From sequence record MT682709.1: a stretch of 64,000 bases of DNA. One strand, 5' to 3'. Both the position numbers and the translations under genes were made by a program. Positions 7,664 to 9,169 of the stretch are shown one piece after another. Under the pieces are notes generated by a model, which ran no database searches, was not told the DNA's origin, and saw nothing but the letters and a program-made list of their open reading frames with translations. Every line of letters begins with the position of its first letter. Within the stretch, counting starts at the first letter, position 1. This DNA comes from Escherichia phage vB_EcoM_SP1.

Positions 7664-8152
7664 ATGAATATATTTGAAATGTTACGTATAGATGAAGGTC
7701 TTAGACTTAAAATCTATAAAGACACCGAAGGTTATTACACTATTGGCATTGGACATTTGCTTACTAAAAGTCCATCACTAAGTGTTGCTAAATCTGAATT
7801 AGATAAAGCTATTGGGCGTAATTGCAATGGTGTAATTACAAAAGATGAGGCTGAAAAACTCTTTAATCAGGATGTTGATGCTGCTGTTCGCGGAATTCTG
7901 AGAAATGCTAAATTAAAACCAGTTTATGATTCTCTTGATGCTGTTCGCCGCTGTGCATTGATTAACATGGTCTTCCAAATGGGAGAAACCGGCGTAGCAG
8001 GATTTACTAATTCTTTACGCATGCTTCAACAAAAACGCTGGGATGAAGCAGCAGTAAATCTAGCCCAATCTAAATGGTATCGTCAGACACCTAATCGCGC
8101 GAAACGCGTAATCTCAACATTTAAAACAGGAACTTGGAAAGCGTATATATGA
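7664..8152 (+). CDS. e: lysozyme (endolysin), T4 e homologue
   Basis: [33 protein letters not shown]... about 95% identical to recalled T4 lysozyme, with substitutions and a shorter C-terminus. Confidence 0.95.
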
Positions 8153-8430
8153 AAACATATAGTGAATTTTTATCAGAATCTATTCTTAACGAAGCTACTG
8201 ACACATTTGCAACTAAGCTAGGTGCAGCTTTGGTTGAAGCTGAAAGTCTATTAGCACGTATTTCTGAACTTGCTAGTAAGATAGATACTCGCAAATTTGA
8301 ACGTACCAGCGATATCGTTAAGCTTGAAGCCTTGTTGCGTATGTGCGATAAACCAGAAGAAATCGCTAAGAACGGCTCGCTAATGAAACAACGTCTTGAA
8401 AAATATATCTCAGGCGCTTCAGAAAAATAG
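8149..8430 (+). CDS. internal-protein-like (leader [11 protein letters not shown]), 93 aa
   Basis: ATG 8149 overlapping the e stop (ATGA); IP-type leader. Confidence 0.6.
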
Positions 8431-8431
8431 T

Positions 8432-8462
8432 GTTTACTTCCTCCAAGGACTTTGATACTATA
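8432..8462 (+). promoter_or_regulatory. T4-type early promoter
   Basis: GTTTAC 8432-8437, GATACTAT -10 region. Confidence 0.5.
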
Positions 8463-8488
8463 CATTCATCAACTACTTGGAGGAAATT

Positions 8489-8902
8489 ATGACTCGTATC
8501 AATTTAACACTTGTTTCTGAACTGACCGACCAACATCTTATGGCTGAGTATCGTGAATTACCACGCGTATTTGGTGCAGTCCGTAAACATGTTCAAAACG
8601 GTAAACGTGTAAAGGATTTTAAAATCTCTCCAACATTTATCTTAGGCACAGGTCACGTAACATTCTTTTACGACAAACTCGAATTTTTACGTTTACGTCA
8701 AATCGAGCTAATCGCTGAATGCTTGAAACGTGGTTTCAAAATCAAGGACACGACTGTCCAGGATATTTCCGACATCCCTGTCGAATTTCGTAATAATTAT
8801 GTCCCGTCCGAAGCGTCCATTGCGATAAGTCAAGCTCGCTTAGATGAAAAAATTGCTCAACGCCCTACTTGGTACAAATACTATGGTAAATCAATTTACT
8901 AA
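8489..8902 (+). CDS. denV: endonuclease V (pyrimidine-dimer DNA glycosylase)
   Basis: [31 protein letters not shown]... matches recalled T4 endo V over its full length; ATG 8489 (track begins at TTG 8477). Confidence 0.9.
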
Positions 8903-8908
8903 GGAAAA

Positions 8909-9169
8909 ATGAAAATGTATCAAGAATTTATCGCTGAAGCAGATGCCAAAGGCCCCAAATTTAAAGTTAAAGCTTTCGTTGGTGATGCAGAAGATTTTGG
9001 CTCATTAAAACGTAATGGGTATTCTTTCCTAGGCGGCGATGGTAGAGAAATAAACACCTATGCAAAACGTAGTGAAATTGCTTATGTTGTAGCAAGCCCT
9101 AAAGTAGATGTTGACGATATTGGATATGATTTTAACAACTTCGGAATTATTTCTGGCGGTAAAGCTTAA
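8909..9169 (+). CDS. internal-protein-like (leader MKMYQEFIAEA), 86 aa
   Basis: ATG with AAGGAAAA RBS; IP-type leader. Confidence 0.65.
   Translation: MKMYQEFIAEADAKGPKFKVKAFVGDAEDFGSLKRNGYSFLGGDGREINTYAKRSEIAYVVASPKVDVDDIGYDFNNFGIISGGKA

Follow-up and report, generated by a model that had tools for sequence, protein, structure and literature searches.

T-even phages have two internal-protein (IP) loci, one beside e and the other beside gene 57. T4 members of the protein class represented here by ipX and ipY inhibit GmrSD-type restriction enzymes. The IP loci of T-even phages were reportedly described as hypervariable by Repoila, Tetart, Bouet and Krisch in 1994 (EMBO J 13:4181). According to the passages on that work in PMC2839356 and PMC12373910, the loci are highly polymorphic, and their shuffling is proposed to proceed through a conserved leader and through conserved blocks that contain promoters (Repoila et al., 1994). 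The leader comprises ~10 residues, resembles MKTYQEFIAE and ends in (L/I)-x-E, the prohead protease site (PMC3012670). In RB49 and phi1, PeSL cassettes likewise place a promoter and stem-loop block, which is a site of homologous exchange, beside small non-essential genes (Arbiol et al., 2010, PMC2839356). The T-even IP elements, with their T4 early promoters and weaker AT-rich stems, are considered analogues, not homologues, of PeSLs (PMC2839356).

Two orders of the e-proximal locus serve as references. Reference T4 (NC_000866) has nudE, e, ipIII, ipII, denV and vs.8, while RB69 (NC_004928) has e, ORF127c, denV, ORF125c, ORF124c, ORF123c and vs.8. GenBank notes indicate that the authors of the 1994 study deposited DenV sequences from the e-vs.8 locus.

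Layout of the e-vs.8 interval

We analysed a 64,000-nt stretch of Escherichia phage vB_EcoM_SP1 (MT682709.1), referred to as the window. Its e-to-vs.8 interval is a T-even IP locus made up of small, arrayed cassettes that each contain a T4 early promoter block, in the order e, leader-tagged ipX, early promoter, intact denV, leader-tagged ipY, ipIII, ipII and denV remnant (Table 1). The IP cassettes share a conserved 33-nt leader encoding a capsid-targeting peptide, and denV is a non-IP member of the array with its own promoter. An earlier sequence-only reading had placed an intact denV between e and ipIII with a leader-tagged gene on each side, and had stated that denV lies downstream of ipII in T4. 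The ORF order and the internal-protein matches of ipX and ipY bear out the first point and NC_000866 the second; the e-denV-ipIII order is absent from the T4 reference, in which denV is distal, after ipII, rather than e-proximal.

Table 1. Features of the e-vs.8 interval and its left flank (window positions)
Feature	Position	Strand	Evidence
nudE	7172-7627		ORF call
e (lysozyme), chimeric	7664-8152	+	Pfam Phage_lysozyme
RB69-type (Mosigvirus-type) block: e 3´ end, ipX, P1, denV allele A, ipY, P2, first 9 nt of ipIII leader	8051-9241	+	
ipX, internal-protein gene, 93 aa	8149-8430	+	phrog_3499 'internal head protein', E = 1e-46
P1, denV promoter block	8431-8488	+	motif-level
denV, intact, allele A, 137 aa	8489-8902	+	Pfam PF03013, phrog_1183
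ipY, internal-protein gene, 86 aa	8909-9169	+	phrog_2667 'internal head protein'
P2 promoter block	9170-9232	+	GTTTAC-N18-TATAAT, motif-level
ipIII, 192 aa	9233-9811	+	phrog_5341
Crossover interval within ipIII leader-coding sequence	9241-9245	+	three-way base comparison
ipII, 100 aa	9853-10155	+	phrog_7857
P3, orphaned promoter block of lost distal denV	10156-10212	+	GTTTAC-N18-TAGTAT, motif-level
denV remnant, allele C, 70 nt	10213-10282	+	alignment to DalCa denV
vs.8, right-hand backbone gene, Tequatrovirus type	10380-10967	+	phrog_1488

The window shares with RB69 the e-IP-promoter-denV-IP order and the lengths of the genes (282, 414 and 261 nt). In RB69, however, two other IP genes follow and neither P3 nor a denV remnant precedes vs.8, whereas the window continues with T4-type ipIII and ipII and the remnant on a T4-like backbone. 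The resemblance to T4 extends to nudE, the 5´ part of e, vs.8 and vs.7 (89-96% identical), to the order of ipIII and ipII and to the presence of a promoter block after ipII, but T4 lacks ipX and ipY and has a single, distal denV of another allele (B), 79% identical to that of the window. As in the T-even IP loci covered in parts of PMC2839356, PMC3012670 and PMC12373910, leader-tagged genes vary in number, order and identity and recombination occurs at conserved promoter blocks, with the crossover here inside the leader. These papers treat IP genes, and denV duplication with reciprocal loss does not figure in their sections on such loci.

The arrangement is a known, common and already sequenced hybrid haplotype, and the mechanism is known too. 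In W143 and NHEP29 the e-ipX-denV junction is present together with the remnant; for N2 (99.7%) and HX01, only the remnant match is listed. W143 covers 99% of window positions 7600-10400 at 97.5% identity, differing by one extra 315-nt ORF between ipY and ipIII. Most genes of the locus in records of the N2, W143, NHEP29 and HX01 type are annotated as hypothetical.

Mosaic boundaries, genes and promoter blocks

Across positions 8051-9241 the window is 95-100% identical to RB69, compared with 64-77% in the flanks (nudE and the 5´ part of e), and the flanks are ~95-96% identical to T4. By segment, identity to RB69 is 98.2% for the e 3´ end, 96.1% for ipX, 100% for P1, 98.8% for denV, 94.6% for ipY and 96.8% for P2, the last with respect to the block upstream of RB69 ORF124c. 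The left junction lies within e at 8050/8051, position 8050 being the last mismatch to RB69. The T4-type 5´ part of the gene (7664-8050) is 95.3% identical to T4 and 76.7% identical to RB69 and mogra, while the RB69-type 3´ part (8051-8152, 102 nt) is 77% identical to T4 and 98-100% identical to RB69, mogra and OES_C-2. For the right junction, comparison of the window, T4 and RB69 revealed that G9241 is of RB69 type and C9245 of T4 type. Both features of the shuffling proposed in 1994 are found at the locus, namely repeated early-promoter blocks and a junction (9241-9245) inside a conserved block. The position of the left junction inside e corresponds to ordinary flanking homology.

To the right of the block, ipIII is 91.9% identical to T4 and 95.1% identical to mogra, ipII is 95.7% identical to T4 and 99.7% identical to mogra, and vs.8 is 95.9% identical to OES_C-2, 91.8% to DalCa, 89% to T4 and 85.7% to mogra. 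Because ipIII, ipII and P3 are closer to mogra than to T4, the imported tract may extend past 9241, as far as 10212.

The coding strand of 8051-9241 is filled by four ORFs alone, the e 3´ end, ipX, denV and ipY; all others listed are frames of 30-114 aa within or opposite these four. Family searches, carried out on the named genes of the block, detected no recombinase or endonuclease family among them. The leader repeat family (D1) has three copies, and beyond the promoter and leader families no direct repeats flank the block. An autonomous mobile element, such as a transposon or homing-endonuclease cassette, was rejected, as the searches with the named genes gave no recombinase or endonuclease family and the repeat search no target-site duplications; homing-endonuclease-driven transfer was also rejected.

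The two additional leader-tagged genes both have counterparts in RB69. The ipX ATG overlaps the e stop codon as ATGA, and the gene is a homologue of RB69 ORF127c (92% identical) with 47% identity to T6 Ip5, which the annotation of the T6 record ties to RB69ORF127c. The ipY gene, which starts 6 nt past the denV stop codon with the leader MKMYQEFIAEA, is a homologue of RB69 ORF125c. Both products carry a 10-residue IP-type leader (MKMYQEFIAE for ipY), and among 12 IP sequences compared, M1, K2 and F7 of the leader do not vary and T3 and E6 hardly do. Both genes also lie between e and vs.8, an IP-locus location in which the RB69 homologues are found as well. The two proteins are candidates for packaging in the head, cleavage and injection with the DNA, the 'internal head protein' names of the PHROG matches being annotation.

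The denV product matches Pfam Pyr_excise (PF03013) with 53.4 bits against a cut-off of 23 and phrog_1183 with E = 2e-62, and aligns end to end with the T4 endonuclease V structure 2END (137/138 residues, E = 1e-81). In the T4 enzyme, Thr2 and Glu23 are catalytic and Arg22 and Arg26 bind DNA. All four of these residues, as well as the C-terminal WYKYY, are identical to 2END. The full length, the family match above cut-off and the retained residues agree with the earlier description of this denV as intact, and the proximal gene is predicted with confidence to encode a pyrimidine-dimer DNA glycosylase (endonuclease V).

The window contains 27 matches to the pattern GTTTAC-N17-19-TANNNT, 25 of them on the + strand, compared with 2.9 expected from shuffled sequences, a difference that argues against chance matches. 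Between the cassettes, three blocks carry the early-promoter motif, at 8432, 9173 and 10158. For P1, GTTTAC (8432-8437) and TACTAT (8456-8461, preceded by TG) are separated by an 18-nt spacer, in agreement, at the level of the motif, with the claim of the sequence-only reading that denV has its own T4-type early promoter. A 10-bp stem formed by 8438-8447 and 8476-8485 pairs with the Shine-Dalgarno sequence GGAGG (8479-8483), and the P1 RNA has a predicted fold of -18.5 kcal/mol (z = -3.0). P3, with 89% identity to the promoter of DalCa denV and 94.7% to mogra, likewise has a stem pairing with the Shine-Dalgarno sequence, while P2 is without a stem-loop. A generic sigma-70 scan found only P2, read as TTTACG-17-TATAAT, with P1 and P3 one match short; since T4 early promoters use GTTTAC, the T4-specific pattern was used.

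The P1 and P3 blocks resemble PeSLs in having a stem beside the promoter. PeSLs, however, combine a sigma-70-like promoter with a G/C-rich terminating stem-loop, while the window promoters belong to the T4 early class; the stems of P1 and P3 involve the Shine-Dalgarno sequence rather than poly-G/poly-C, and P2 is stemless. We therefore rejected the assignment of P1-P3 as PeSL elements. RNAalifold gave no consensus structure for eight denV promoter blocks, in whose MAFFT alignment the GTTTAC motifs were set out of register; an apparent covariation in the stem among these blocks was judged by eye. A search of window positions 7000-11500 against Rfam with E up to 1 returned a single match, a chance lncRNA below threshold, and the fold of the conserved stretch before vs.8 was no better than that of shuffled sequences.

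denV alleles and scars in this and other genomes

The T4 position of denV holds a scar, located where the sequence-only reading expected it. The remnant consists of the first 8 nt of denV (ATGACTCG) joined to the last 62 nt, has the reading frame Met-Thr-Arg-stop and is 97% identical to DalCa denV (allele C), in which two GACTCG repeats lie 347 nt apart; the deletion between these repeats is 347 bp. The undeleted form, with ipII-P3 followed by an intact denV and exactly 347 bp longer, is found in 10 records, and the remnant itself is present in 16 GenBank records. An assembly artefact was rejected given this recurrence in 16 independent records.

An intact copy and a remnant in the same genome, with a similar promoter and stem-loop block before both, could suggest that the resident distal denV left its site together with its promoter, as a mobile module, and inserted anew between e and ipIII, and promoter-flanked cassettes of RB49 and phi1 can indeed form mini-circles (PMC2839356). 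This is nevertheless highly improbable. At the nucleotide level the intact allele A is 98.8% identical to RB69 denV, 78.7% to T4 denV (allele B) and just 67.4% to DalCa denV, the parent allele of the remnant, and it came as part of an RB69-type segment with the e 3´ end, ipX and ipY. What remains at the distal site reflects an internal deletion, with the promoter and the two ends of the gene still in place, and not a promoter-plus-gene excision; no recombinase ORF is found in the block, and the proximal arrangement also occurs in five other genera. The proposal, made from the sequence, that a functional denV moved as a module with its own early promoter thus stands for the intact gene, the promoter motif and the scar at the T4 site, but not for a move within one genome.

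The same proposal took the distal site to be ancestral, and the distribution of the two orders points the other way. The e-ipX-denV junction occurs in 238 GenBank records and the T4 ipII-P-denV junction in 45, which makes the T4 order the minority form, and the e-proximal order is found in RB69 as well as in Dhakavirus, Gelderlandvirus, Marfavirus and Karamvirus phages. In RB69, WG01, CGG4-1, F48 and VIPECLUMC02 alike, e is followed by an ORF that carries the leader and overlaps the e stop, then by denV, more genes and vs.8. Between denV and vs.8, RB69 and F48 have leader-tagged IP genes (two or three), CGG4-1 has a single named gene, an Ip4 homologue, and the ORFs of WG01 and VIPECLUMC02 are all unnamed. 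Judged from one genome from each of five genera, without formal reconstruction, the e-proximal order is more likely the older.

Scars at one or the other denV position are present in several other phages. In ZCEC14, an AAACGGT microhomology marks the junction between nt 1-114 of a proximal allele A and P2, and the distal allele C is intact. In CT01, which lacks an intact denV, the ipIII leader is fused at AAAACG to a fragment of a proximal allele A. JS09 combines an intact A with another distal C scar, formed at GGCAAA; mogra likewise has an intact A, and its P3 is fused at GGTAAA to the stretch preceding vs.8. The denV of OES_C-2 is chimeric, with nt 1-76 from allele A and the remainder from allele C. 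SH-2 has the same remnant as the window with a different left half, its 417-nt ORF after e being taken as denV from length and position, and PHB12, on a Mosigvirus backbone, has the same locus, remnant included, in a single colinear match that runs to window position 10398. T2 and T6 are, like CT01, without denV.

A tblastn search with denV gave 1122 places in 1118 records, and no record was fully covered by a composite query of denV-A and denV-C. The top coverage, 93%, arises because the conserved 5´ part cross-matches and because of chimeric genes (for example in OES_C-2), not from double copies. Neither search gave a genome that carries denV twice at full length.

Origin of the arrangement

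We consider it very probable that unequal recombination between two arrangements of the IP locus gave two denV copies, one of which was then lost. One parent would have had the RB69-type arrangement (e, ipX, promoter block, denV, ipY, promoter block, further IP genes, vs.8) and the other the T4-type arrangement (e, promoter block, ipIII, ipII, promoter block, denV, vs.8), with homologous recombination involving crossovers in e (8050/8051) and in the shared IP leader (9241-9245). As the crossover leader lies upstream of denV in the T4-type parent and downstream of it in the RB69-type parent, the recombinant would inherit two denV genes, allele A beside e and allele C beside vs.8. Slippage or illegitimate recombination between the GACTCG hexamers would then have removed 347 bp from the redundant distal copy, leaving P3 and the 70-nt remnant, and the proximal denV would be the working gene, transcribed early from P1 and probably from upstream promoters too. 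The sequences show the gene layout, the mosaic boundaries, the identities of the alleles, the endpoints of the deletion and the scars of other phages. We infer the two-copy intermediate from the reciprocal scars only, and likewise infer the activity of the promoters, the enzymatic and packaging functions and the order in which the events took place.

The distal deletion could, however, predate the acquisition of allele A. A T4-type ancestor that lost its distal denV, and was UV-sensitive like T2, would later have been rescued by import of the RB69-type block, with no two-copy stage in its lineage. Viable denV-less phages (T2, T6 and CT01) and the absence of observed genomes with two full-length copies are consistent with this sequence of events, which we regard as unlikely. 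The ancestry of ZCEC14, with its proximal A scar and intact distal C, must include a genome with both copies, which places a two-copy stage somewhere in the haplotype family. Moreover, the examined genomes with a distal scar (the window, JS09, mogra, PHB12 and SH-2, the last by ORF length and position) all have an intact proximal denV.

Because SH-2 and PHB12 share the remnant in other contexts, the hybrid may also have arisen in a different lineage, from which this phage acquired it in finished form. The whole locus, from the e 3´ end to the remnant, would then have been imported by crossovers in e and near the vs.8 start, with no rearrangement in the phage's own ancestry. The greater similarity of ipIII, ipII and P3 to mogra (95-99.7%) than to T4, the PHB12 locus and the recurrence of the remnant in 16 records all fit such an import, which we hold to be possible though doubtful. 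The remnant and the following 95 nt are Tequatrovirus-like (97-99% identical to DalCa and OES_C-2) and continuous with a Tequatrovirus-type vs.8, so the right-hand part looks resident. A ready-made import would in any case alter where the events happened, not what the events were.

Returning to unequal recombination, we lean somewhat towards a more general reading, in which the T-even e-vs.8 locus has two denV slots, leader-mediated unequal crossing-over of RB69-type with T4-type arrays repeatedly makes two-copy and, reciprocally, no-copy genomes, and selection or deletion bias trims them to one. If so, independent microhomology scars could date and count cassette exchanges, and the exchange would span the Mosigvirus/Tequatrovirus boundary. 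RB69 fails to recombine across this boundary in laboratory crosses (PMC6024577).

For annotation, vB_EcoM_SP1 is a standard T-even phage with a probably working denV, two extra genes for predicted injected proteins and one pseudogene that should not be called. Existing knowledge of the locus is unchanged, and its value is that of a teaching case and a possible marker system. It is a compact natural record of T-even anti-defence cassette shuffling, with crossovers mapped to a few bases, in which a housekeeping-type denV would have been duplicated as a by-product and the duplicates would have decayed independently across isolates.

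Layout of the e-vs.8 interval

The ORF listing and the sequence confirm the gene order read earlier from the sequence alone, with leader-tagged genes (ipX and ipY) on either side of an intact denV between e and the internal protein (IP) genes ipIII and ipII. The denV product scored 53.4 bits against its Pfam model (cut-off 23) and aligned end to end with 2END, the T4 endonuclease V crystal-structure sequence (E = 1e-81), with Thr2, Arg22, Glu23, Arg26 and the C-terminal WYKYY all kept; judged by its sequence, the gene looks functional. Both ipX and ipY start with the leader that targets T-even internal proteins to the capsid (PMC3012670, PMC12373910), in ipY MKMYQEFIAE. 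Across an alignment of 12 leader-tagged proteins from seven phages, mutually unrelated outside the leader, M1, K2 and F7 never vary, and T3 and E6 hardly do.

Features of the interval from nudE to vs.8, in window coordinates
Feature	Coordinates	Strand	Length	Basis or content
nudE	7172-7627	+		ORF listing and sequence
e	7664-8152	+		ORF listing; Pfam phage lysozyme
ipX	8149-8430	+	93 codons	PHROGs internal head or virion protein
Spacer ipX-denV (P1)	8431-8488		58 nt	GTTTAC-N18-TAnnnT
denV, intact	8489-8902	+		Pfam pyrimidine-dimer glycosylase
ipY	8909-9169	+	86 codons	PHROGs internal head or virion protein
Spacer before ipIII (P2)	9170-9232			GTTTAC-N18-TAnnnT
ipIII	9233-9811	+		PHROGs internal head or virion protein
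ipII	9853-10155	+		PHROGs internal head or virion protein
Spacer ipII-remnant (P3)	10156-10212		57 nt	GTTTAC-N18-TAnnnT
denV-like remnant, short	10213-10282	+
vs.8	10380-10967	+		ORF listing

All three spacers carry a pattern resembling a T4 early promoter. Across the window, GTTTAC-N17-19-TANNNT occurs at 27 sites (2.9 expected from shuffles), 25 of them on the + strand, which suggests that most of the 64 kb is transcribed early and in one direction. There is no separate GTTTAC promoter for ipII. The gap between ipIII and ipII holds a perfect GC-rich hairpin of 7 bp (9814-9831, AGGCCTAAGTATAGGCCT; fold z = -3.1) with ATTTACATTT after it, which looks terminator-like on both strands. At the denV promoter, a 10-bp stem (8438-8447 / 8476-8485; -18.5 kcal/mol, z = -3.0) encloses the -10 region and pairs with the Shine-Dalgarno sequence; the predicted structure would hide the RBS in read-through transcripts from upstream and leave it free in transcripts starting within the loop. 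A comparable Shine-Dalgarno-pairing stem is present in P3. At the position of the denV promoter stem, T4, WG01 and CGG4-1 carry another 10-bp stem (TCTCCTGTAG/CTACAGGAGA), and the differences, judged by eye, look like covariation.

An RB69-type segment and a remnant of another denV allele

Compared with T4, the flanks (nudE, the 5´ part of e and vs.7) are 95-96% identical, whereas the intact denV is only 79% and the final 102 nt of e only 77% identical. RB69 (genus Mosigvirus) shows the reverse pattern, with 64% identity in nudE and 77% in the 5´ part of e, but, from 8051 on, 98% in the e 3´ end, 96% in ipX, 100% in the promoter block, 98.8% in denV, 94.6% in ipY and 96.8% in the next promoter block. 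Position 8050 is the final RB69 mismatch ahead of a 109-nt perfect run. At the other end, the RB69 match, not shared by T4, extends up to G9241 and includes the sequence upstream of the ipIII ATG; from C9245 on, the match is to T4 ipIII and not to RB69 ORF124c. This two-sided switch in identity marks 8051-9241 as an RB69-type segment within a T4-type backbone; by these alignments, one junction is in e and the other in the 33-nt leader common to all IP genes. The left half of the window arrangement is that of the published RB69 reference genome, which has the same order and gene lengths (e, ORF127c, denV, ORF125c). Laboratory crosses of RB69 with T4-type phages reportedly gave no recombination (PMC6024577); the 98-100% identical block indicates that the segment passed between RB69 and T4 backbones in nature, possibly via intermediates.

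RB69 ORF127c (4350-4404 of its locus extract, minus strand) differs from ipX (8149-8200) by a -1/+1 indel pair in the leader. The RB69 leader (MKTYMNFYQNLSLNEAT) thereby lacks the conserved EF of ipX and its cleavage-site Glu, which reflects either decay or an old sequencing error.

The sequence-only reading had also placed a denV scar at the T4 position and proposed that the functional copy moved from there as a small module with its own early promoter. The scar is present and derives from allele C, the DalCa type: 10158-10220 aligns with the DalCa denV promoter and the first 8 nt of the gene, and 10212 onward aligns with the final 62 nt of the DalCa gene and continues into vs.8 (95.6%). The two alignments overlap by GACTCG, a hexamer that DalCa denV has at codons 1-3 and repeats 347 nt further on, and the remnant reads Met-Thr-Arg-stop. 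It occurs in 16 GenBank records, while ten others share its ipII, promoter and vs.8 flanks but have an insert exactly 347 bp longer, an intact allele C denV. The intact window copy (allele A, RB69 type) has 67.4% nucleotide identity to allele C and 78.7% to the T4 copy (allele B), B and C being 71.2% identical; allele A thus cannot be derived from the remnant's parent gene. The position and the promoter-like motif of the proposed module therefore stand, but the A-C divergence and the RB69-type block speak against a move within the genome.

The T4 denV allele with its promoter (2440-2920 of the T4 locus extract) is 93-96% identical to its counterpart in JS98 and VR5 (Dhakavirus), and WG01 and T4 share the same denV promoter stem; exchange between genera may have affected even the T4 reference allele. 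Identity to T4, DalCa and OES_C-2 is 97-99% over the roughly 95 nt from the remnant to the vs.8 start codon (10283-10379), and a core of 40 nt (about 10330-10369) retains 94-97% identity even in Gelderlandvirus S16 and Klebsiella phages, which carry no annotation there. T4 is annotated with a longer vs.8 that has this stretch at its 5´ end; in the window, an ATG at 10316 opens only a 33-codon ORF in another frame. The stretch had no Rfam match and folded no better than shuffles.

Gene order across relatives

The T4 reference (NC_000866) reads nudE, e, ipIII, ipII, denV, vs.8 and not e-denV-ipIII, in agreement with the sequence-only reading, but the accompanying view that this distal position of denV is ancestral was not borne out. 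All five phages sampled from other genera (Mosigvirus RB69, Dhakavirus WG01, Gelderlandvirus CGG4-1, Marfavirus F48 and Karamvirus VIPECLUMC02) have e, a leader-tagged ORF overlapping the end of e, denV, more IP genes or unnamed ORFs, and vs.8. In the phage collection, the window e-ipX-denV junction was found in 238 records (coverage at least 80%) and the T4 ipII-promoter-denV junction in 45. Other orders are e, denV, vs.8 without IP genes in DalCa, e, ipII, denV in UGKSEcP1, and e, ipIV, vs.8 with no trace of denV sequence in T2; the T6 record has e directly next to regB and lacks everything from the IP genes to vs.3. T2 and T6 are classically more UV-sensitive than T4, which fits their loci. 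From an informal comparison of a single genome for each genus, the simplest reading of these sequences is that denV is a fixture of the e-vs.8 interval, with IP cassettes coming and going on either side, and that the T4 arrangement is one derived state.

The T2 vs.8 region is seemingly frame-shifted, its annotated ORF being only 333 nt. In Klebsiella phage F48, the leader-tagged gene overlapping the end of e (1840-2142 of its locus extract) is an IpII homologue nearly identical to the window ipII over most of its length, and thus one IP can fill different slots in different genera.

A proposed two-copy route to the hybrid locus

Recombination between RB69-type and T4-type arrays through the common leader would give products that depend on which leaders pair. 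If the leader after denV in the RB69-type parent paired with the one before denV in the T4-type parent, one product would carry denV twice and the reciprocal product would carry none. Scars in other isolates suggest that two-copy genomes once existed. ZCEC14 is the mirror image of the window: an AAACGGT microhomology links nt 1-114 of the proximal (e-side) allele A to the promoter block that follows, ipY is lost, and the distal allele C is intact. In CT01, nt 1-112 of proximal A are fused with the ipIII leader at AAAACG, and there is no intact denV. Allele A is intact in both JS09, where a different deletion, at GGCAAA, left a distal C remnant, and mogra, where GGTAAA marks the direct fusion of an orphan P3 with the sequence preceding vs.8. 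The one denV of OES_C-2 is chimeric (nt 1-76 from A, the rest from C), indicating that denV itself is also a crossover site. No record with two full-length copies was found by tblastn (1122 places in 1118 records, the four extra places probably being denV fragments like these scars), nor any matching a composite A-plus-C query at full coverage. Gain may have preceded loss or followed it.

The window ipIII, ipII and P3 are nearer to Mosigvirus mogra than to T4, PHB12 has the same locus including the remnant in a Mosigvirus backbone, and in SH-2 this remnant is combined with another left half. The hybrid locus was probably formed once and then passed between backbones via flanking homology, and may have reached vB_EcoM_SP1 ready-made.

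Duplication and reciprocal loss of denV were not found stated in the literature consulted, in which Repoila et al. (1994) is represented through summaries. According to these (PMC2839356, PMC12373910), gene number, order and identity at the two T-even IP loci are highly polymorphic, and the conserved 11-residue leader and promoter-containing blocks were proposed to mediate shuffling. Arbiol et al. (PMC2839356) describe promoter and stem-loop cassettes in RB49/phi1, of which they regard the T-even IP elements as analogues and not homologues. The arrangement in the window is already known, as one haplotype of a recognised hypervariable locus. Each of T4 Ip1, Ip2 and Ip3 inhibits one particular GmrSD-type restriction enzyme (PMC12373910), which is a likely selective reason for the cassette turnover.
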